Shown here one piece after another: positions 1 to 11,271 of a DNA stretch of 11,271 nucleotides. The DNA is from a virus (taxonomy: Duplodnaviria > Heunggongvirae > Uroviricota > Caudoviricetes): positions 1 to 11,271 of the IMG/VR virus record IMGVR_UViG_2563366822_000010; one strand, given 5' to 3'. The notes beneath the pieces are model-generated. The model saw only the letters and a program-made list of their open reading frames with translations. It was not told the DNA's origin and ran no database searches. Every line of letters starts with the position of its first letter. The first letter of the stretch is position 1. Made by a program: the position numbers and the translations under genes.

Positions 1-552
1 ATGCATGAAAATATTTGGTTTACATATAAAGCCCGTATTCAAGCGCACCATAGACTAGAATGGCTTGAAAAACACTCTCAATTTATCCTCGTTTGGTATG
101 CTATATTGAGTGCGGTACTTTCAATTATAACGTTACGATTTCCAAAATTTCTAGGAGATAATACAGATATCGTTGCGGCAATACTTTCAGTGGCTCTACT
201 GGGTATTTCTCTGATCGTATCTAACCTAGATTATCGTGGTCGAGCAATAGCCATGAGAAGGAATTATATTGCACTACAGAGACTCTATTTTGATATTAAT
301 AACGGCCAACAGTTAACTCTTGAACAGAAAGAAAAATATTTTAATTTGCTCAATGAGGTTGAGAATCATCGTGACATAGATGATAAAGTTTCAAGGGTAA
401 CTCAAGTTGGACTTACGACTAGACTCCCCACACAAAAAGAAAAAATAATTGTTAAATTATGGATATTACGTCGAATGTTTATTACTGTCGGCCTTTATAT
501 CCTCCCATTAATATGTCTTTGGATTGACTATGAATGCAAGCAGAGTTTTTAA
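1..552 (+). CDS. Small multi-pass membrane protein (2-3 predicted TM helices); putative effector partner of the downstream reverse transcriptase
   Basis: 183-aa open frame in very AT-rich (stop-codon-rich) DNA, so unlikely by chance. N-terminal amphipathic segment (MHENIWFTYKARIQAHHRLEWLEKHS), then two hydrophobic helices (FILVWYAILSAVLSIITL at about nt 79-135; IVAAILSVALLGISLIVS at about nt 166-219), a charged soluble segment, and a third hydrophobic/amphipathic stretch near the C-terminus (IVKLWILRRMFITVGLYILPLICLWI). Stop TAA at 550-552 overlaps the RT start. The ORF begins at window position 1, so the true start could lie upstream. Confidence 0.6.
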   Translation: MHENIWFTYKARIQAHHRLEWLEKHSQFILVWYAILSAVLSIITLRFPKFLGDNTDIVAAILSVALLGISLIVSNLDYRGRAIAMRRNYIALQRLYFDINNGQQLTLEQKEKYFNLLNEVENHRDIDDKVSRVTQVGLTTRLPTQKEKIIVKLWILRRMFITVGLYILPLICLWIDYECKQSF

Positions 553-1900
553 AAAGTCATTCTCGAAAAAAAACCTTCTAAAAGTATACAATGAAAAAAT
601 CAAAGAATCAGGAGCGATTGGCATAGATCGGATTCGTCCATCAAAACTTGATTTAACAATAAAGAATGAGATCACTTTTATTTTTGAAAAGGTTAATTGT
701 GGAAATTATAAATTTACAGCATATAAAGAAAAATTAATATCTAAAGGGGCTAACTCTATCCCCAGACAGATTTCCATACCAACTGCCAGGGACAGAATTA
801 CCCTTAGGGCTCTCTGTGAATGCCTTACAGAAATATATCCTAACTCCAGATTAAAACTACCACATACAGTAATTGACTTATTGAAAAATGCATTAAACAG
901 CGATCTATATGCTGAATATGCAAAAATAGATCTCAAAAGTTTCTATCCTTCAATTGAACATAAATTGATATTTAATGCAATAAAAAATAAGATTAGAAAA
1001 AAAGAAATTAGGCAGTTAATAACATCATCATTAATCGTGCCTACTGTAAGTGGAAGTACAGGAAGCAAAGGTGTCCCTAATAATACCAGAGGAGTACCTC
1101 AGGGGTTAGCAATATCAAACATTTTAGCTGAAATATCACTATCTGATTTCGACAATGAAATCAATAAAATGCATGACATATGGTACATGCGATACGTTGA
1201 TGACATTCTTATTTTAACGCAAAAAGATCAAGCAACAAAAATTGCATCTCATATCATTGATAAGCTTCAATCATTAAATTTAAACCCACATCCATTAAAT
1301 GAAGAGAACTCAAAATCCAAAGTAGGCAGCTTGGATGAAAGTTTCAACTTTTTGGGCTACCACATAAAAAATCGAGAATTATTGATAAAACATGAGAGCA
1401 TTCTTAGATTTGAGTCATCCTTAGCAAAAATTTTTACTGCATATAGACACGCTCTACTACAAGCTAAAAATAAGCGCGATAAAGAACGAGCTGTTGCATA
1501 TTGTCAGTGGAAACTAAATCTTAGAATTACGGGATGTGTGTTTGAAGGTAAACGATTGGGATGGGTATCGTACTTCTCACAAATAACGTCAACAGCTCAA
1601 CTTCGAGCTGTTAATCATACGATCAATAATCTTATCCGCCGATTCGGCCTTTCATCAGAAATAAAACCAAAGTCTTTGATTAAAACTTTCTATGAACTCC
1701 GCAGGGGTAGAGCGGAGACTTTTAAATACATACCTAACTTTGACAATCTACATATATCTCAGAAACGAGAAATTGTTTCTATGTGGATAGGGAAAGAGAA
1801 TGAAAAAAAACTTAGCAATAGTGAAATAGAGAGAAAATTTAAATTTAAAATTGCGAAATCAGTAAAAGAGCTTGAAGAGGACATTTCAGGGATATCATAG
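530..1900 (+). CDS. Reverse transcriptase (bacterial standalone RT, retron/Abi/UG-like)
   Basis: Polymerase motifs read directly from the translation: ..SIPRQISIPTARDRITLRAL.. (motifs 1-2), ..YAKIDLKSFYPSIEH.. (motif A, Asp codon 926-928), ..TRGVPQGLAISNILAEISL.. (motif B), ..YMRYVDDILIL.. (motif C, YVDD at 1193-1204), ..NFLGYHI.. (motif E). About 170 further residues follow motif E. ATG at 530 is the likely start; the ORF track begins at an in-frame TTG at 524. Overlaps the upstream ORF by 23 nt in a different frame. Confidence 0.85.
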   Translation: MNASRVFKKSFSKKNLLKVYNEKIKESGAIGIDRIRPSKLDLTIKNEITFIFEKVNCGNYKFTAYKEKLISKGANSIPRQISIPTARDRITLRALCECLTEIYPNSRLKLPHTVIDLLKNALNSDLYAEYAKIDLKSFYPSIEHKLIFNAIKNKIRKKEIRQLITSSLIVPTVSGSTGSKGVPNNTRGVPQGLAISNILAEISLSDFDNEINKMHDIWYMRYVDDILILTQKDQATKIASHIIDKLQSLNLNPHPLNEENSKSKVGSLDESFNFLGYHIKNRELLIKHESILRFESSLAKIFTAYRHALLQAKNKRDKERAVAYCQWKLNLRITGCVFEGKRLGWVSYFSQITSTAQLRAVNHTINNLIRRFGLSSEIKPKSLIKTFYELRRGRAETFKYIPNFDNLHISQKREIVSMWIGKENEKKLSNSEIERKFKFKIAKSVKELEEDISGIS

Positions 1901-1962
1901 ATATGTAATCCATTAAATCCTTTATATATAAAGCAATAAACACACTATTTAAATTCACAAAT

Positions 1963-1998
1963 CAGCCGCAGTATCCTGCCATGACAAGTTGCTGCGGC
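1963..1998 (-). terminator. Candidate stem-loop terminator between the convergent tfa and RT genes
   Basis: Inverted repeat GCCGCAG (1965-1971) / CTGCGGC (1992-1998), extendable by G-U and A-U pairs, with a loop of about 16-20 nt. On the minus strand it is followed by a moderately T-rich tract (TGATTTGTGAATTTAAAT). No clean U-run, so weak. Confidence 0.3.
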
Positions 1999-2012
1999 AT
2001 ATCACAAAACGA

Positions 2013-2597
2013 TTACTCCATAACAGGGACCGCAGGCCACTCAATATCAGGTGCAGTTGATGTATCAACACGGTTCAGCAACACCCGATACTTTTTCCAG
2101 GCTTCCAGCAATGAGGTTTCTTCCTCCGTTGCAATTTCCAGATCTGCAGCATCCTGAAGCGGCGCAATATGCTCACTGGCTACCTGCATCAGGTTGTTTT
2201 TTGTTTCTTCCGCCTCCCGGATCCGGAACAGTTTTTCTGCTTCCGTATCCTTCACCCAAGCTGTGCCGTTCCACTTCTGAAACTCCCCTTCCGGCGATAA
2301 CCAGGTAACATTTTCCGGTAACGGACCGAGTTCAGAAATAAATAACTCGTCCCCTGACGCTACGTCATAAACCGTTTTACCCCGATGGTCTTCAAAGAGA
2401 TGCCACGATGACTCATCACTGTTGAAAACAGCCACAAAGCCAGCAGGAATATCTGGTGGTGCAATATCGGTACTGTTTGCTGGCAGACCTGTATGAGGCG
2501 GAATATATGCGTCACCTTCACCAATAAATTCATTAGTTCCGGCCAGCAGATTATAAATTTTTATGGTCCGTGCTTGTTCACTCATTCTGAATGCCAT
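2013..2597 (-). CDS. tfa: Tail fibre assembly protein Tfa
   Basis: 194-aa translation ([54 protein letters not shown]...[11 protein letters not shown]) is near-identical to phage lambda Tfa as I recall it. The ATG overlaps the stf stop (TAATG junction at 2595-2599), as in lambda. Confidence 0.93.
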
Positions 2598-5389
2598 TAT
2601 GCAAGCCTCACAATATAGTTAAATGCGATGTTTTTGACGGTGTTTTCCGCGTTACCAGCAGCGTTAACGGTGATGGTGTGTCCATGTGAACCAATCGCAA
2701 CGGAGTGCGCATGAGCACCAATTGGAACAGAGTGCGCATGGTTACCTGTAGTGCTTGTGGCACCAGACCAGGTTCTGGAAGCGTTAAAGTTTACAGGAAC
2801 ACCATAAGTAAATTGAGAGCCCGTAAATCCATGGGCTGGCGCAGAGCCACCCAGTGTAAATGCTCCACTTGCTGTATAGAAATTACCGCTATCACTTCTG
2901 AAGTAACCGAGAGTACCGGTAATTTCCATAGTGCCTCGGCTGTGGTTATGGTCACCAGTGGCATTTGAAGACTTAGTACCATAATCAAACGACGACGTGG
3001 TTTTCGTCCCCAAATCCGTACTGGATGCACTGGCGCTGTGGGTGTGCGATTTAATGCCGTCCTGTTCCTGAGATAATACGGCTCGACCACTGGCAGGTTT
3101 GCCCTTAATCGTCCAGCCACGCATATCAGGGATCACGCCTGACGGATAAGCAGCTGCAAGTTTCGGGTAAGCAGATTTGTCAAAAGTCTGCCCCTGCATC
3201 AGGGCATAACCAGACGGAACGGTATCTGATGGCCACGGGATTGGTGCGCCGACTGGGTAGCTTTCTGGTGGAAGATTTTTCGAGGTATAAACTTCTGCCC
3301 AGTCTTCCTCAAAACCATAACCGTCTCTTGAAGAACGGTAGAACAGACCACGATTTCTGTAATGCGCCTTCATCTGCAGGGTCCGGCAACTTCCGACTCC
3401 GGTATAGAAGTTAACCAGAATATAGCTGTCGCCAGAGCGGGTGACATTGTAAGCGCCTGATTCGGCATTCCAGGGAACGGCTCCATCCGAATCCGCATAA
3501 GCCCCCGTCGAACGTCGGGCAAATGCACCAATATTTTCCGGCGTGAGGTTAATATCCGCCGAGCCATCAAACTTAACACCGTTAATTTTTGGGTCTGCCG
3601 CAAGTTTCGTCGCGGTATCGGCGTTCCCCTTCAGTGCCCCGGTGATCCCATCAGTAACAGACAACGGACCTGAAATAGTCCCTCCAGTTGTTGGCAGCGC
3701 TCCAATATCTGATGGTGTAGGTTTCTGATGTGAGCTATACATCGTATAAACAACACCATCGGTAACGCTGGAAGGCTTACTCGCTGAATATGTTAGCGAG
3801 GTATAAATAGAAACTGACGCATTTGTAGTACAATCCCAATGGATATTTACACTCGTCGCATAATTGCCAATCTCAACGTAAATATCATATATATCGCCGG
3901 ATGTGTTGATCCAGGCGAAATTCGTTAATCCGACGGCTGTACGCTTCCACAAAGCTCCGGTAATCCCTTTGGGGTTTCCATTGCCTGCTCGTAGAACCAG
4001 TTCAGATATACCTGCCTGTTGAGGTGCCCCCACGTTAAATCCAGCGCCACCAATCAATGCGATGTAAACGATGGAACTCGCTTGTGGCATGGTAACCGTT
4101 GCCAGTTTGAACCACCCTGCCCCGCCAGAGAAAGAGATCGTTACTGAATTTAAAGTGCCAATATCTTTCGGTGTTAATGTTATATCCGCAGTCAGTGCTT
4201 TCCCGTTAACTTTTCGGTTAGATGGTACCCTGCCATTCGCATTGTCATTCGCTGCTTTAACTGCCTTCGGTGTCGCGGCAAGCGTTTCAGATGTGCTGTT
4301 GGTTGCACTGCTGAGCTGTACTATCCCCTTTTTCGTCGTACTTGCATCCTCAAGCGCCACGGCGGATGCAATATCCTCTGCCCGTTTTGCCGCTGTCTCG
4401 GCGCGCGTTGCCGCGGATTCCGCCGTACTTTTGCTCTGAGCTGCCGCCGTCGCACTGCCAGCTGCCTCTGTCGCCTTCGTGGATGCCGTCGTGGCGCTGC
4501 CCTTTGCTGCTGACGCCTGTCTGGTCGCCTCATCTTTTGAAGCAGACGCAGATGATGCCGATGACGCCGCCGAACTGGCGGACGATGCGGCAGCCGTTTT
4601 TGAGGATTCTGCGCTGGTTTCCGAGGCTTTCGCGTTCGTTTCGGATGTCTTCGCTGCCTCTTTTGAGGCCGCCGCATCCCGTGCTGAAGTGGCTGCTTCT
4701 GACGCTTTCGTGGTCGCGGTGGATGCAGAAGTGGCTGCTGATTGTTGTGACGCTGCCGCATTCGTTTCTGACGTTTTCGCCGCACCGGCACTGGTAGCCA
4801 CCGCGCTTTTTGAGGACTCTGCAGCGGCAGCACTTTTTGATGCTTCAGTAGCCTTTGTTGATGCCGTTCCTGCGCTGGAAGACGCTGACTGAGCCGACGT
4901 CGCGGCCTGCCCGGCTGATGTGCTGGCTGCACGTGCTGAGCCTGCAGCATCAGTCGCATGGGTTGCCGCCTCACTGGCAGATATGCTGGCATCGCTGGCT
5001 GACTTCTTCGCGGCTGCCGTGTTCTGTGCCACCGCGGACGCGTTACGCGCCACCTCTTCCACCATCAGTTCAAAACGGCGCAGTGCCTCAGGACGGGCAT
5101 CATCCTCCGTCATGGCACCGAGAAAATCATTCAGCGTACCGGGTCGGGAATCTTCATACACGGTGATGGTCCCGGCATGTGAAGGCGGAAAACCTTCAAC
5201 CAGCAGGGTGACGCTGTACTGACCATGCTCAACATCCATGCTGTAACGTCCGGCTTCATCCGGATTTTCAGAGGCCACCGTGTTCACCACCACCGTGCTG
5301 CTGGTTCGTCTGGCCTTCAGCACAATGGTGCAGTTCTGTACTGGTTTTCCTGTGCCATCTTTAAGCACGCCAGAAATTTTTACTGTCAT
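2597..5389 (-). CDS. stf: Side tail fibre protein Stf
   Basis: 930-aa ORF. N-terminus ([28 protein letters not shown]...[14 protein letters not shown]...[15 protein letters not shown]) and C-terminus ([71 protein letters not shown]...[31 protein letters not shown]) match lambda Stf as I recall it. The centre is an Ala/Ser/Thr-rich low-complexity region. A GGTGGA Shine-Dalgarno lies 5 nt upstream of the ATG at 5387-5389. Confidence 0.93.
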
Positions 5390-5401
5390 ACTTTTCCACC
5401 A

Positions 5402-5435
5402 ATAAAAAAGCCCGCAGCAGTGACGCCACGGGCTT
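5402..5435 (-). terminator. Rho-independent terminator downstream of lom
   Basis: Stem AAGCCCG (5408-5414) / CGGGCTT (5429-5435) with a 14-nt loop. On the minus strand the hairpin is followed directly by TTTTTTATT (plus 5402-5409 is ATAAAAAA). Confidence 0.5.
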
Positions 5436-5539
5436 CAGGACAGTGTAACTTTACGTTTCCTCAAACGCAGTTCACCCCATAAGGTGGATGAACCTGCGTA
5501 TCATAACAATATTTACAGAAGATAAATCGGCGTCTGTTG

Positions 5540-6139
5540 TCAGAAACGGTATCCGATACCAACAATAAATGCATCCGTTCGCCAGTCGCCACTACCGGAA
5601 CCTTCATAAGCAAGGTCAATGGTCACGGATTCGGTCGGGTTAAACTGCACGCCAGCCCCCCACGCCAGAGACGTGTTGCTGTGGCGACCGTCATCACTTC
5701 CGGTCAGCACATCGTGCGTTTTCCCCTTGTTGTCAGTTACGCGGAGATAATCCCCGGAGAAAGTCGACACACGGCTGTAAGCCACACCCACCATCGCATA
5801 CGCGCTGAACCATTCATTCACGCGTACAGACGGCCCCGCCATCACGCTGAACCAGCGGTTACGCACGGAATCTTCATGCCAGCGGGTATCGCTGTAGTGC
5901 GTTTTTTTCTCATCTTCAGCATTGGCATAACTGAAGGACGTAATCAGCCCCAGCGCGTCCGTAAACTCATAACGGTATTTCACGTTAATCCCGTTCAGAT
6001 TATCGCTGCCGGGAGCGTTCGTACGGGCATGAAGATACCCCGCGCTCAGTGTGGACTGATGTTCAGACGCCCATGCAGGCGCACCAGATACGGACAGACA
6101 GATGGCTGCGGACAAAATGGCTGCACAAACTTTACGCAT
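5540..6139 (-). CDS. lom: Outer-membrane protein Lom (Ail/Lom/PagC/OmpX family beta-barrel)
   Basis: 199-aa translation (MRKVCAAILSAAICLSVSGAPAWASEHQSTLSAGYLHARTNAPGSDNLNGINVKYRYEFTD...AFIVGIGYRF) closely matches lambda Lom as I recall it. It has an N-terminal signal peptide ending AWA-SE and a C-terminal aromatic residue typical of outer-membrane barrels. Confidence 0.93.
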   Translation of the reverse strand: MRKVCAAILSAAICLSVSGAPAWASEHQSTLSAGYLHARTNAPGSDNLNGINVKYRYEFTDALGLITSFSYANAEDEKKTHYSDTRWHEDSVRNRWFSVMAGPSVRVNEWFSAYAMVGVAYSRVSTFSGDYLRVTDNKGKTHDVLTGSDDGRHSNTSLAWGAGVQFNPTESVTIDLAYEGSGSGDWRTDAFIVGIGYRF

Positions 6140-6161
6140 AATTACCTCTCGCTTTTCTGCA

Positions 6162-6187
6162 ATAAAAAAGGCGCCATTTCTGGCGCC
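6162..6187 (-). terminator. Rho-independent terminator between J and lom
   Basis: Stem GGCGCCA (6170-6176) / TGGCGCC (6181-6187) with a 4-nt loop TTTC. On the minus strand it is followed by TTTTTTATT (plus 6162-6169 is ATAAAAAA). Confidence 0.5.
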
Positions 6188-6206
6188 CGTATATGGGTTA
6201 TAAAAT

Positions 6207-9687
<3,481 letters not shown>

Positions 9688-9696
9688 TCACACTCC

Positions 9697-9726
9697 ATAA
9701 ACAACAAAGCCGCCCAAAAGGCGGCT
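9697..9726 (-). terminator. Rho-independent terminator downstream of the lipoprotein gene, immediately upstream of the J ribosome-binding site
   Basis: Stem AGCCGCC (9708-9714) / GGCGGCT (9720-9726) with a 5-nt loop. On the minus strand it is followed by TTTGTTGTTTAT, then GGAGTGTGAGGA and the J ATG. Confidence 0.45.
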
Positions 9727-9750
9727 CATGAGTTACGACAGGATTAACTA

Positions 9751-10089
9751 TTATTTACATGCATTAACACTATCAGCAAAAATTTTTGGCGTTAATGCTG
9801 GTACACGTTCATAAAGAGTAAAACTACTGCCATTTCCTGCTTTTTTGATATCAAGCACAACATCATATCCCCCCATAGCCTGTGGAACTAAAAGGCTTAC
9901 CCCATTCTCAATAGGAAGGGATGTTATAGGTGTTCCATTACCAGCCCATTGTCTGGATATGCAGCCTGACAATTCATCAATATTTTTTAATGAATTACCT
10001 TCCATTACAGGTTTTCCGGATTTTACGTAATCCAAAGATTTACATCCTGTTAAGGCAATAATCGTGCAGAATAAAATCGTTTTGTTCAT
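9751..10089 (-). CDS. Small lipoprotein (signal peptide with lipobox LTGC); inserted gene between I and J
   Basis: From the ATG at 10087-10089: MNKTILFCTIIALTGCKSLDYVKSGKPV..., i.e. basic N-terminus, hydrophobic core and L-T-G-C lipobox. About 112 aa. It sits in an AT-rich insert (about 9690-10162) that is absent between I and J in lambda. No strong Shine-Dalgarno is visible; the ORF track starts at an upstream TTG (10101), so the start is uncertain. Confidence 0.6.
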   Translation of the reverse strand: MNKTILFCTIIALTGCKSLDYVKSGKPVMEGNSLKNIDELSGCISRQWAGNGTPITSLPIENGVSLLVPQAMGGYDVVLDIKKAGNGSSFTLYERVPALTPKIFADSVNACK

Positions 10090-10162
10090 ATAGCTAACCA
10101 ATAGAATAATTATCAGTGTTCGATATAAATATTAAATTAGTTAGAACATGAGTAAAATAATA

Positions 10163-10804
10163 TTACCGCCCAATTACCACAACCTGACCACCATCCCCTT
10201 CATCTGCCGTGCTGATCTCCTGAGATGCCACACGTGACCCCACGCGCATTTCACCGTACAGAACAGGCAGGACATTGCCCTGGGCAACCATGTTATCCAG
10301 TGAGGAGAAATAGGTGTTCTGTTTGCCGTTATCCGTTGTCTGTGTACGGGGAGTTCTGGCTTTCGGTGCCAGCATCTGCGCCACACCACCAAGCGTCATC
10401 GCCGCACCCATTGAAAAGAGAATGTCACTGAAAGCGATACTGATCCCCGGCATCCAGATTGCCGTAGCAATCAACGCCGCACCCAGCACCGCCTGAAACA
10501 CACCGCCACTTTTTGCTCCCGCAAGACGCGGCACGATGTGGATCACGGCACCATTTGCCAGCGGCTCATTAAGACGGGATGATAATTCGGTTTCTCCTGC
10601 ATCCCGCCCGGCAATCCGTACCTGATACCAGCCGTCGCTCAGTTTCTGACGAAACGCCGGGAGCTGTGTGGCCAGTGCGCGGATGGCTTCAGCCCCCGTT
10701 TTCACACGAAGGTCGATGCGGCGGCCAAATCGTTGCAAATCCCCGTAAAGGCAGATGCGTGCCATTCCCGGTGACGCCAGAGGGAGTGTGTGCGTCGCTG
10801 CCAT
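10163..10804 (-). CDS. I: Tail assembly protein I
   Basis: 213-aa translation (MAATHTLPLASPGMARICLYGDLQRFGRRIDLRVKTGAEAIRALATQLPAFRQKLSDGWYQVRIAGRD...QTTDNGKQNTYFSSLDNMVAQGNVLPVLYGEMRVGSRVASQEISTADEGDGGQVVVIGR) matches lambda I as I recall it. The 5' end overlaps the K 3' end (10702-10804) in another frame, as in lambda. Confidence 0.93.
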   Translation of the reverse strand: MAATHTLPLASPGMARICLYGDLQRFGRRIDLRVKTGAEAIRALATQLPAFRQKLSDGWYQVRIAGRDAGETELSSRLNEPLANGAVIHIVPRLAGAKSGGVFQAVLGAALIATAIWMPGISIAFSDILFSMGAAMTLGGVAQMLAPKARTPRTQTTDNGKQNTYFSSLDNMVAQGNVLPVLYGEMRVGSRVASQEISTADEGDGGQVVVIGR

Positions 10805-11271
10805 TTGTCGGTATACCTCTCTCGTTTACTCAGTTGTTCAGGAATATGGTGCAGCAGCTCACCGTCGCCGCAGTAAATGGCGGCGTGATTCGGCACCGAT
10901 GAACCAAAACAGCACAGCAGCACATCGCCCGGCTGCGCCTCTGTCAGTGCGACACGGTAAAAACCAGTAGCCTCCATATTGTCAAGATAGAGATTCTGAC
11001 CGTGACGCCACCAGTCATCCCCGCGATGAAAATCCGGCATCTCAATCCCCGCCAGATGATAAGCATCCCGGAACAGCGTGTAACAGTCCGTCACCCCGTA
11101 CTCAAAGCGCCGCCCGGTGAGATGCGGCACACAGCGGAACTTATGAATCGTCCCCCGGCAGACCAGCCACCACGGCAAATCGCTCTGCACCTGCAGCCGC
11201 CGGTCAGCCTCACTCAGCCAGGGCAGACCACCGGGGTGGCTGTGGACCAGCGCCACAATCTCACCCTGCAT
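10702..11271 (-). CDS. K: Tail assembly protein K (JAMM/MPN-like plus NlpC/P60-like motifs); probably 5'-partial at the window edge
   Basis: Translation contains a JAMM-type metal-binding signature HSHPGGLPWLSEAD and a C-terminal papain-like arrangement (Cys in GVTDCYTLF, His in NHAAIYCGDG), the domain pair described for lambda K. Synteny (upstream of I, overlapping it) supports the call. The ORF is open to the last base of the window, and the JAMM motif sits only about 10 residues from the first visible Met, so the real start is probably beyond 11271. Confidence 0.88.
   Translation of the reverse strand: MQGEIVALVHSHPGGLPWLSEADRRLQVQSDLPWWLVCRGTIHKFRCVPHLTGRRFEYGVTDCYTLFRDAYHLAGIEMPDFHRGDDWWRHGQNLYLDNMEATGFYRVALTEAQPGDVLLCCFGSSVPNHAAIYCGDGELLHHIPEQLSKRERYTDKWQRRTHSLWRHREWHASAFTGICNDLAAASTFV

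Follow-up and report, generated by a model that had tools for sequence, protein, structure and literature searches.

A prophage-borne SLATT_5 gene overlapping a UG17 reverse transcriptase gene: the probable membrane effector of a DRT10 anti-phage system

The 11,271-nt stretch of DNA analysed here, referred to as the window, carries two overlapping genes followed by a convergent phage tail module. It starts at the ATG of the SLATT gene, and the RNA gene that completes the operon lies outside it. The features are as follows:

About 20-155 nt upstream of base 1, plus strand: DRT10 non-coding RNA (ncRNA) of ~137 nt, with its own promoter, outside the window
1-552, plus strand: SLATT_5 gene, an intact, complete open reading frame of 183 aa, the predicted three-transmembrane (3-TM) membrane effector of DRT10
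530-552, plus strand: 23 nt shared by the two genes, closing the SLATT gene and opening the reverse transcriptase gene
530-1900, plus strand: UG17 (DRT10) reverse transcriptase (RT), 456 aa when started at the ATG at 530; YVDD active site, C-terminal Ser456
2013-11271, minus strand: lambda-like prophage tail module, convergent with the DRT10 operon, delineated by open reading frames, PHROG matches and the RefSeq annotation of E. coli IAI39

SLATT homology of the first protein, guessed in the original prediction without being demonstrated, is now clear from three independent profile libraries, with scores well over the curated cut-off wherever one exists. The protein matches Pfam PF18160 (SLATT_5) at E=2.3e-28 and 99.3 bits (cut-off 29.5), residues 3-172 aligning to positions 10-189 of the 192 in the profile; it scores 133.6 bits against NCBIfam NF033631 (SLATT_5; cut-off 60) and matches the PADLOC RTasSLATT model at E=2.8e-57. 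The SLATT_6, SLATT_4 and SLATT_1 profiles gave weak cross-matches, and scores for the other SLATT subfamilies fell under their own cut-offs. All 120 listed homologues carry PF18160. Among 37 homologues with 51-89% identity there are 44 invariant columns, and the invariant polar cluster comprises R79, R81, R86, N88, Y89, E121, N122, H123, D127, D128, R132 and R141. By these profile matches the product of 1-552 is a true SLATT-family protein of the SLATT_5 subfamily.

The membrane architecture is largely as had been anticipated from hydrophobicity. Kyte-Doolittle profiles with 19-residue windows place hydrophobic segments at residues 25-48 (peak 2.11 at 27-45), 54-78 (peak 2.37 at 55-73) and 149-179 (peak 1.86), and three or more such segments arose in just 14 of 2000 composition-preserving shuffles. 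An AlphaFold2 model built with the 37 homologues (pLDDT 77.9, pTM 0.67) is all-helical, with helices at 2-46, 55-75, 78-98, 107-119, 126-134 and 145-182. The two closely spaced TM helices proposed at about 27-45 and 56-73 are matched by both the hydropathy peaks and the modelled helices, so that the ‘2TM’ core of the family, two adjacent N-terminal hydrophobic helices, is present. The charged soluble middle and the C-terminal hydrophobic segment that had been described after them are likewise borne out by hydropathy, the model and residue counts. The third hydrophobic helix, at about 153-177, agrees with the ‘2-3 TM helices’ given for SLATT proteins (PMC9226505). The stretch 76-152 holds 14 K/R and 10 D/E, and by the positive-inside rule this charge suggests that the N-terminus and the 76-152 stretch are cytoplasmic and the C-terminus outside. 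One element of the predicted layout did not survive: the N-terminal segment is not amphipathic, its helical hydrophobic moment being only 0.12-0.18, a value reached by 4420 of 5000 shuffles. What the segment carries is a polar/aromatic motif that hardly varies (W6 F7 T8 K10 A11 R12 I13) and is continuous with TM1 in the AlphaFold2 model. Structural searches returned little. Searching PDB sequences at E<=10 gave no homologue, only a chance match to ATP-synthase b, and Foldseek of the model against the PDB gave no match at E<=0.001, the top ones being generic helical bundles and BAR domains. A BFVD fold search gave weak matches (best overall E 0.01), the top 50 including eight SLATT-annotated entries, also weak, all at E>=0.06.

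The second gene encodes an RT that matches the PADLOC RT_UG17 model at E=8.4e-159 and 527 bits over all profile positions (1-429 of 429), compared with 85 bits for Drt2 and 63.9 bits for Drt9; the Pfam RVT_1 profile gives 75 bits. The nearest solved RT found by sequence search of the PDB is GsI-IIC (E=4.7e-14). The catalytic YVDD motif is intact, as it is in 33 of 33 related RTs. The protein ends in ...EEDISGIS. Counting from the ATG at 530, the last residue is Ser456; an upstream TTG at 524 would add two residues, which Tang et al. call a misannotation (PMC12632851). Serine is the terminal residue in 31 of the 33 relatives and tyrosine in one. The equivalent of Ser456 is the position mutated in Eco3DRT10 (PMC12632851), and Ser456 is conserved here as a candidate priming residue.

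The 23-nt overlap suggests translational coupling of SLATT and RT, and an overlap of the two genes is also noted for the native Eco3DRT10 operon in the supplement of PMC12632851. Across 38 species-level loci the RT follows SLATT in 35, at a spacing of -20 to +45 nt from the SLATT end, and the pair is spread over Enterobacterales, Pseudomonas, Stenotrophomonas, Bordetella and Rhodocyclales with differing flanks. Homologues consistently lacking an adjacent RT had been named as evidence that would refute the effector proposal; this check does not refute it, the pairing being kept in 35/38 loci. The SLATT_5 family is nonetheless not strictly tied to an RT, since three related SLATT_5 genes lack one; closely related RT-less SLATT_5 proteins adjoin a helicase and a PLD nuclease.

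The DRT10 genes here form a moron where a lambda-like prophage ends, by prfC and a dinI-like gene. The tail module comprises tfa, stf, lom, a split J, a small lipoprotein-like open reading frame, tail assembly I and a K-like peptidase, and in IAI39 the RefSeq annotation puts the equivalent region next to prfC and the dinI-like gene. The DRT10 locus was found only in chromosomal prophages; a phage collection gave no DNA match to it. The best whole-window match among complete E. coli genomes has 90% coverage and 95.5% identity.

The ncRNA could not be seen from the window sequence because it lies upstream of base 1. The E. coli IAI39 locus (L001) is 100% identical to window 1-2012, and its ncRNA occupies L001:11846-11982, behind a promoter-like TTGACT-18-AATAAT at L001:11810-11839. 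The IAI39 RNA folds at -54.2 kcal/mol (z=-5.67), and in loci identical to window 1-2012 it is laid out as a basal stem, four small stem-loops and a 20-nt template loop. Over 31 loci, 23 of 35 pairs show compensatory changes, compared with 7-11 when the pairing partners are slid, and 95.7% of alignment cells are paired versus about 50% with slid partners; none of 500 shuffles matched the observed pairing and covariation values. The ncRNA region occurs in 188 complete E. coli genomes, as does at least 80% of the SLATT-RT stretch, and the ncRNA accompanies the locus in every complete E. coli genome carrying it. With the RNA outside the window, completeness of this copy is inferred from the loci identical over 1-2012, by which the window copy would be a complete DRT10 system, ncRNA included.

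An A-B-A' pattern of at least 3 nt is present in the template loop of 30 of the 31 loci. In loci identical to window 1-2012 (the window-type allele) the ncRNA has the form GGGGCAG...CUGCCCC, the loop is GUUCAACGGUUCCAAUAUAU and the template reads CAAC-GGUUC-CAAU, from which the predicted cDNA product is (GAACCGTTG)n.

The SLATT and RT genes belong together to DRT10, an already described defence system of three parts (ncRNA, SLATT and RT), on which experiments have been published for a near-identical E. coli allele. Eco3DRT10 (E. coli strain 703491, RT OKX54664), studied in Tang et al. 2025 (PMC12632851) and Ramirez et al. 2026 (10.64898/2026.06.29.735271), has the same order of ncRNA, SLATT and RT with overlapping genes, and Eco3-type alleles (L043, L044) occupy the same chromosomal/prophage site, by prfC and the dinI-like gene. 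The two RTs are identical at 379/399 positions (95.0%), with YVDD and the ...ISGIS end common to both; the ncRNA of window-identical loci is about 96% identical to that of Eco3DRT10, with the same stem-loops; and the SLATT proteins are 89.6% identical, with 19 differences. The exact window SLATT sequence is already in Table S1 of PMC12632851. The association of RT with SLATT_5 is attributed to Burroughs et al. (2015), who, as cited in later papers, described the SLATT superfamily; the UG17-SLATT association and presumed SLATT-mediated toxicity were discussed in 2022 (PMC9226505). The mechanism, telomerase-like, protein-primed tandem-repeat synthesis, was published in 2025-2026 for the allele whose RT is 95% identical to that of the window. 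The Eco3DRT10 RT yields protein-primed tandem cDNA of 9-nt repeats, and defence is abolished by SLATT deletion and equally lost in RT YVAA and ncRNA mutants (PMC12632851). RT-, SLATT- and ncRNA-dependent defence with tandem-repeat cDNA is experimental for Eco1/2/3DRT10 (PMC12632851) and for the UG17-A DRT10 of Escherichia sp. E3659 (Sanchez-Nieto et al. 2026; 10.64898/2026.04.29.721553). The E3659 system shares the ncRNA, SLATT_5 and UG17 RT components and the SLATT-then-RT order with the window, but is a different homologue: the paper's gene coordinates imply proteins of about 186 and 445 aa, the ncRNA has 143 nt and six predicted stem-loops, and the product is a 7-nt AGTAATA repeat. Defence requires all three of its parts, as does toxicity in a delta-sbcB host, which also depends on RT catalysis (10.64898/2026.04.29.721553).

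Among wider relatives, SLATT superfamily proteins (SLATT_1 to SLATT_6, from CBASS-like, RADAR, DRT3 and AbiA systems) resemble the window protein in having a 2-3 TM helical domain and a short helical soluble part, and form the terminal module of conflict systems, as proposed here. Other SLATTs pair with a SMODS cyclase or SLOG sensor, whereas the window's SLATT_5 subfamily pairs with an RT and ncRNA; its presumed ligand would be long repeat ssDNA or the RT-DNA adduct and not a cyclic nucleotide. On the RT side, the class 2 UG/Abi systems DRT9 (UG28) and DRT2 (UG2) also use an ncRNA-templated RT making repetitive DNA. DRT9 is protein-primed as well, and the DRT10 ncRNA architecture resembles that of DRT9. 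The products differ, however, being poly-dA in DRT9, concatemeric gene-encoding cDNA (neo) in DRT2 and tandem repeats in DRT10. DRT2 works without a SLATT, and among UG28 (DRT9) members a SLATT is only occasional (7 of 124).

Our preferred reading, to which we assign a probability of about 0.9, is that the SLATT_5 protein of 1-552 serves as effector in an anti-phage system of the DRT10 (UG17) type, carried as a prophage moron and acting by the following mechanism. The ~137-nt ncRNA, encoded immediately before SLATT, would have a promoter to itself, and two RT protomers would assemble on one ncRNA, as in the published cryo-EM of Eco3DRT10. The RT would use the hydroxyl of its C-terminal Ser456 as primer for DNA synthesis, copy the 9-nt A-B template and realign on the downstream A', giving long tandem-repeat ssDNA covalently attached to the RT, steps that are published for Eco3. 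Host ExoI (SbcB) would restrain this DNA and phage SSB-like proteins would upset the balance, as has been published for a different UG17-A system. Control of the membrane-embedded SLATT would then lie with the state of the cDNA, which would switch it on or hold it off, and SLATT, which is predicted to oligomerise, would breach the inner membrane and abort infection. By analogy with published DRT10 relatives, in which SLATT is genetically required for defence and toxicity, the proposal that the membrane protein is the toxic effector finds support in the genetics of close relatives (Eco3DRT10 defence; UG17-A delta-sbcB toxicity). Pore formation or membrane permeabilisation by the window SLATT is a prediction. 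The partner's role needs amending: its link to SLATT holds, the RT gene overlapping the SLATT gene by 23 nt, but it is not simply a sensor, as it would, like the Eco3DRT10 RT, constitutively synthesise tandem-repeat ssDNA from the ncRNA.

The system had been framed as a retron or nucleotide-signalling system, in which the RT makes msDNA and a generic 2TM effector is released when the msDNA is disturbed. An RT and a 2TM effector are indeed found together in some retrons, e.g., Ec48. PADLOC's generic 2TM ‘Effector’ models match the SLATT protein weakly (E=2e-5 and 1.6e-4) and the retron St85 RT model gives 62.9 bits, but this last score is far under its 235-bit cut-off while RT_UG17 matches full-length at 527 bits, and the framing gives way to DRT10/UG17. 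No retron msr or other ncRNA family was found by Rfam in the window at gathering thresholds, nor at E<=1 in L001:11300-14200, which spans the upstream region. The upstream RNA has instead the DRT10 architecture with an A-B-A' template loop, and a 95%-identical system yields protein-primed tandem-repeat ssDNA, not branched msDNA. Retron identity is ruled out by the RT profile scores together with the missing msr-msd family; for the cyclic-nucleotide variant, no cyclase or SMODS gene adjoins SLATT-RT among the window's open reading frames or in the IAI39 region. Either version is highly improbable. The chance that the gene is an unrelated prophage membrane protein (a holin, superinfection-exclusion factor or lom-like moron) lying by accident beside the RT is smaller still, practically nil. 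Its moron position by tail-fibre genes and its PHROG family, phrog_20297, labelled ‘unknown function’, would suit such a protein, but the 23-nt gene overlap, a pair kept in 35/38 loci across diverse taxa with differing flanks and profile matches specific to SLATT_5 would not, and we consider it ruled out by synteny and the SLATT_5 matches.

Harder to weigh is the sign of the control. The authors of PMC12632851 propose that cDNA neutralises SLATT: constitutive repeat ssDNA would keep it inactive, antitoxin-like, and infection would free it by lowering cDNA. Consistent with this, cDNA in Eco3DRT10, the closest studied relative, is constitutive and its abundance drops on Bas18 infection (PMC12632851). 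However, delta-sbcB hosts, where cDNA should accumulate, suffer toxicity, and a catalytic-dead RT, which makes no cDNA, is tolerated and non-toxic alongside intact SLATT. Both observations fit activation by cDNA better than neutralisation, and we see the antitoxin-like arrangement as a real but minority possibility. The delta-sbcB data come from a UG17-A homologue different from Eco3DRT10, and the two may differ. The direction of the cDNA change on infection is itself a point of disagreement between PMC12632851 and 10.64898/2026.04.29.721553, E3659 cDNA rising where Eco3DRT10 cDNA falls. It is also conceivable, if unlikely, that SLATT serves as a membrane anchor or scaffold for the RT-cDNA complex and that harm comes from the ssDNA, e.g., by titrating SSB, ExoI or RecA. 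The trigger (a phage SSB-like protein) and the suppressor (host ExoI) are both ssDNA-metabolism factors, the DRT10 papers considered here report no direct membrane-damage assay (depolarisation or pore formation) for a SLATT_5 protein, and Mestre et al. (PMC9226505) give SLATT an accessory role in RADAR, DRT3 (UG3+UG8) and UG28. Against a mere scaffold, delta-sbcB toxicity is gone when SLATT alone is inactivated; toxicity thus needs SLATT even though cDNA synthesis needs only the RT and ncRNA, which argues that ssDNA is not sufficient for harm. The wide pairing of the SLATT family, as terminal module, with unrelated sensors (PMC9226505) and the RT-less SLATT_5 proteins beside a helicase and a PLD nuclease likewise suit a self-contained effector module.

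Within the preferred DRT10 effector reading, the window-type allele may represent naturally occurring variation in the Eco3DRT10 template. The Eco3 template as published, CAATGATTCCAAT, differs from IAI39 by two mismatches, a match that alone is not significant, and its homologous position in IAI39 was confirmed by alignment with Eco3-type alleles. The Eco3DRT10 template loop, CAAUGAUUC, differs from the window-type CAACGGUUC by two transitions, which would change the predicted repeat from GAATCATTG to GAACCGTTG. The A-A' homology is 4 Watson-Crick pairs in Eco3DRT10 but 3 plus a possible G-U wobble in the window type, where a second, competing register appears, based on a 4-nt GUUC...GUUC match and repeating every 8 nt. 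Through this strengthened GUUC...GUUC homology, the transitions could shift the register to an 8-nt repeat, CGTTGAAC. Separately, the evolution of SLATT may be uncoupled from that of the repeat sequence. Between the window and Eco3DRT10, SLATT has diverged faster than the RT or ncRNA (89.6% versus 95% and about 96%), seven of its 19 differences fall within residues 152-172, in the third hydrophobic helix, and in the APEC O78 allele an Eco3-like SLATT occurs together with a window-type template. If so, what SLATT senses would be the amount of ssDNA or the RT-DNA adduct, not the repeat sequence, and its TM3 variation might reflect an arms race with phage inhibitors. Taken jointly, the altered template and the independently evolving SLATT form a tentative picture, one we think has a good deal less than an even chance.

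Hydrophobicity pattern and gene context were enough for the original prediction to identify a defence effector correctly. The field's question concerns the control of SLATT by cDNA and the action of SLATT on the membrane, for which the window locus is no more tractable than the systems already studied. Its value is rather as a natural template variant and, for comparison, as a source of a SLATT with a divergent third helix. The locus survey also documents DRT10 in E. coli: about 3.5% of complete genomes carry this prophage-borne system, its ncRNA unannotated there.

The gene at positions 1-552 encodes, with a probability of about 95%, the SLATT_5 component of a DRT10 (UG17 reverse transcriptase) defence system. 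The original prediction had likened the product to 2TM/SLATT effectors and left the homology itself open; profiles now make it unambiguous, with matches to Pfam SLATT_5 (PF18160; E=2.3e-28, 99.3 bits, cut-off 29.5, nearly full length), NCBIfam SLATT_5 (133.6 bits, cut-off 60) and the PADLOC RT-associated SLATT profile 'RTasSLATT' (E=2.8e-57). Among PHROGs the match is phrog_20297, which carries the function label unknown (E=3e-116). The adjoining RT covers the whole of PADLOC RT_UG17 (E=8.4e-159); retron, group II intron, Drt2, Drt3a and Drt4 assignments were rejected, all scoring far under their cut-offs. In E. coli IAI39, where the pair is identical, RefSeq labels the first gene 'SLATT domain-containing protein' and the second 'reverse transcriptase domain-containing protein'. 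The features of the window are as follows.

1-552, plus strand: SLATT_5 gene, a complete ORF of 183 aa starting at base 1
530 (ATG) to 1900 (stop), plus strand: UG17 RT gene, overlapping the SLATT gene by 23 nt
Rest of the window, convergent with the DRT10 operon: lambda-like prophage tail module, from ORFs and PHROG matches
9751-10101, minus strand: 116-aa ORF with a lipoprotein-like signal (MNKTILFCTIIALTGC), between J and the tail assembly gene, matching phrog_914 (unknown function)

The hydrophobic layout originally proposed for this protein, two closely spaced helices and a further C-terminal segment, was borne out in substance. Kyte-Doolittle profiles (19-residue windows) give three hydrophobic segments, peaking at 2.11 (27-45), 2.37 (55-73) and 1.86 (155-173), and only 14 of 2000 same-composition shuffles have three such segments. 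The AlphaFold2 model, built with 37 homologues as input (mean pLDDT 77.9, pTM 0.67), is all-helical (2-46, 55-75, 78-98, 107-119, 126-134 and 145-182). An amphipathic N-terminal segment had also been described, and this fails: the helical moment is 0.12-0.18, equalled or exceeded by 4420 of 5000 shuffles. The segment consists of a near-invariant motif, W6-F7-T8-x-K10-A11-R12-I13. Residues 76-152 hold 14 K/R and 10 D/E, the loop at 46-55 two K/R and the C-terminal tail one; by the positive-inside rule, the N-terminus and soluble middle would be cytoplasmic and the C-terminus outward.

Rather than consistently lacking an adjacent RT, homologues of this protein usually have one. A search with the SLATT alignment through a single genome for each species gave 40 loci whose proteins are 35-74% identical to the query. 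Two of these are cut off by contig ends; in 35 of the remaining 38 a UG17-like RT starts within -20 to +45 nt of the end of the SLATT match. All 33 translated related RTs contain YVDD. At the RT C-termini in L001-L040 (equivalent to window 1826-1897) the final residue is Ser in 31 of the 33 and Tyr in one (Stenotrophomonas, L020), with one truncated (the RT of L035, at 409 aa, seemingly so). A conserved acidic helix, ELExD, precedes this residue, and the arrangement fits a priming residue at the extreme C-terminus. Three Pseudomonas SLATT_5 loci, whose SLATT proteins are 53-58% identical to that of the window, have no RT within 3 kb.

L004:459-3525: RT-less SLATT_5 locus of P. paralactis
L005:117-3549: RT-less SLATT_5 locus of Pseudomonas sp. 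AKS31
L008:110-3549: RT-less SLATT_5 locus of P. serbiensis

Directly upstream of SLATT_5 in these loci lies a conserved protein of 610-640 aa with two PLD-like domains (PLDc_2, NgoFVII-like), preceded in L005 and L008 by an AAA_12 helicase-type ORF of ~320 aa and in L004 by a shorter ORF with similar C-terminal sequence. The SLATT_5 effector family is thus not exclusive to RTs, and these loci may represent a distinct RT-less defence module reusing the same effector.

Tang et al., from whom the name DRT10 comes, reported phage defence by three E. coli homologues, requiring the RT active site, the SLATT gene and a ~137-nt ncRNA upstream of SLATT (PMC12632851). DNA synthesis is primed by a serine (S456 in Eco3DRT10) or a tyrosine at the RT C-terminus; a short A-B template is copied, and realignment on a downstream A' copy gives long tandem-repeat ssDNA (PMC12632851). 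Structures of a 2:1 RT-ncRNA complex have been obtained by cryo-EM (Ramirez et al., 10.64898/2026.06.29.735271). The window system is a close relative of Eco3DRT10, its RT being 95.0% identical, gapless, across the 399 residues that the supplement prints, and its SLATT 164/183 (89.6%). The Eco3DRT10 RT (OKX54664) has an NCBI start two residues longer, so that S458 becomes S456 (PMC12632851 supplement), and the window RT behaves likewise: TTG 524 gives 458 aa and ATG 530 gives 456 aa, ending in Ser. The Eco3-type allele occurs in the complete genomes MS20654 and NCCP12480 (RT 397/397 and 396/397 identical), in the same place, with prfC and a dinI-like gene on one side and prophage on the other. 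When the two E. coli allele groups are compared, SLATT is less conserved than the RT and the ncRNA (about 96%), and its changes cluster around two places, residues 100-102 and the third hydrophobic helix (152-172, 7 of 19 differences); recombination or selection could account for this.

Since the window starts at the SLATT start codon, the ncRNA lies outside it, and an Rfam search of the window found no relevant ncRNA family. The 244-nt gap upstream of SLATT in IAI39 (L001, identical to window 1-2012) has three features: a promoter-like motif, a folded RNA and a single-stranded loop.

244-nt IAI39 upstream gap: promoter-like element, TTGACT-18-AATAAT
L001:11846-11982: DRT10 ncRNA, 137 nt, a basal stem with four stem-loops
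Immediately 3' of the last ncRNA stem-loop: 20-nt single-stranded loop, GUUCAACGGUUCCAAUAUAU

The IAI39 ncRNA folds at -54.2 kcal/mol against a shuffle mean of -35.3 (z=-5.67). In an alignment of the corresponding upstream stretches from 31 loci of different species, RNAalifold recovered a matching architecture with compensatory changes in 23 of 35 pairs. With the structure held fixed, 95.7% of cells are paired, against 49-55% when partners are slid, and compensatory-change pairs fall from 23 to 7-11; none of 500 shuffles reached the observed values. Among complete E. coli genomes, 188 contain the ncRNA region, and 188 likewise contain 80% or more of the SLATT-RT stretch; the ncRNA was without annotation in all 24 E. 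coli RefSeq records among the matches listed.

The Eco3-type template, CAAU-GAUUC-CAAU (CAAUGAUUC; L043/L044 within L042-L044:2247-2391), follows the published A-B-A' pattern. Two transitions distinguish it from the IAI39 type, which is identical to the window, and from the APEC O78 type, both of which read CAAC-GGUUC-CAAU (CAACGGUUC). Published rules require A and A' to agree at their first two or three bases, tolerate the fourth, which is copied from A, and leave B free (PMC12632851); on this basis the window-type allele should yield (GAACCGTTG)n, and a G-U wobble could still let the 3' end of the cDNA pair with A'. The transitions also generate a competing 4-nt GUUC...GUUC repeat, which could support an 8-nt register. 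We take a 9-nt product to be more likely, because the template boundary is reportedly set by the upstream stem-loop (PMC12632851). APEC O78 pairs an Eco3-like SLATT (178/183) with the window-type template, a hint that SLATT ignores the repeat sequence, in agreement with the published tolerance of template mutations. The APEC O78 RT (L042:2931-4300) is annotated as two ORFs, 'hypothetical protein' and 'RNA-directed DNA polymerase', and IS2 sits between the dinI-like gene and the ncRNA; DRT10 is probably inactivated in this strain.

Genetic results from related systems give good support to SLATT as the component on which killing or defence depends. A different UG17-A system kills delta-sbcB hosts, an effect that needs SLATT, RT catalysis and the ncRNA, and its activation requires a phage SSB-like protein (Sanchez-Nieto et al., 10.64898/2026.04.29.721553). 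TM architecture and family-level predictions make pore formation or membrane disruption moderately likely; no biochemical action of SLATT is demonstrated in the Tang, Sanchez-Nieto or Ramirez papers, and in all three the link from cDNA to SLATT is a proposal (PMC12632851; 10.64898/2026.04.29.721553; 10.64898/2026.06.29.735271). Tang et al. proposed that cDNA restrains SLATT, led by the drop in Eco3 cDNA on infection (PMC12632851). The delta-sbcB and YVAA results lean the other way, towards activation of SLATT by accumulating cDNA (10.64898/2026.04.29.721553).

The original proposals are correct in outline and already published, down to this allele, whose exact SLATT sequence appears three times in Table S1 of PMC12632851. 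What is new is small: a natural two-base template variant with ambiguous register, faster SLATT divergence in the third helix, a terminal Ser on nearly every UG17 RT, and SLATT_5 loci with a helicase and PLD partner instead of an RT.

The DRT10 locus is carried by the prophage as a moron, next to the tail-fibre end. It is always chromosomal in E. coli (197 of 5426 complete genomes) and had no match in the phage collection. The tail module comprises tfa, a 930-aa side tail fibre, lom, J, the lipoprotein-like ORF, tail assembly I and a K-like peptidase. J, a single 3699-nt gene in IAI39, is split here on the minus strand into a 744-aa N-terminal ORF (7450-9684) and a 424-aa C-terminal ORF (6207-7481) that carry a common 21-letter peptide. 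Within this tail-tip gene lies a perfect direct repeat of 63 nt whose copies are spaced by 82 nt (7386-7448 and 7468-7530, minus strand). The split looks like an 82-nt tandem duplication with frameshift; the prophage tail could be defective, or the duplication could be a scar of recombination or an artefact of assembly. The 116-aa ORF is probably a moron, perhaps a lipoprotein of the outer membrane or one for superinfection exclusion. At 2056-2254 (minus strand) there is a match to Rfam IS009, a candidate E. coli sRNA family (225 bits, gathering score 117); it falls wholly inside the tfa coding sequence, and the family may simply model a conserved prophage tfa segment.
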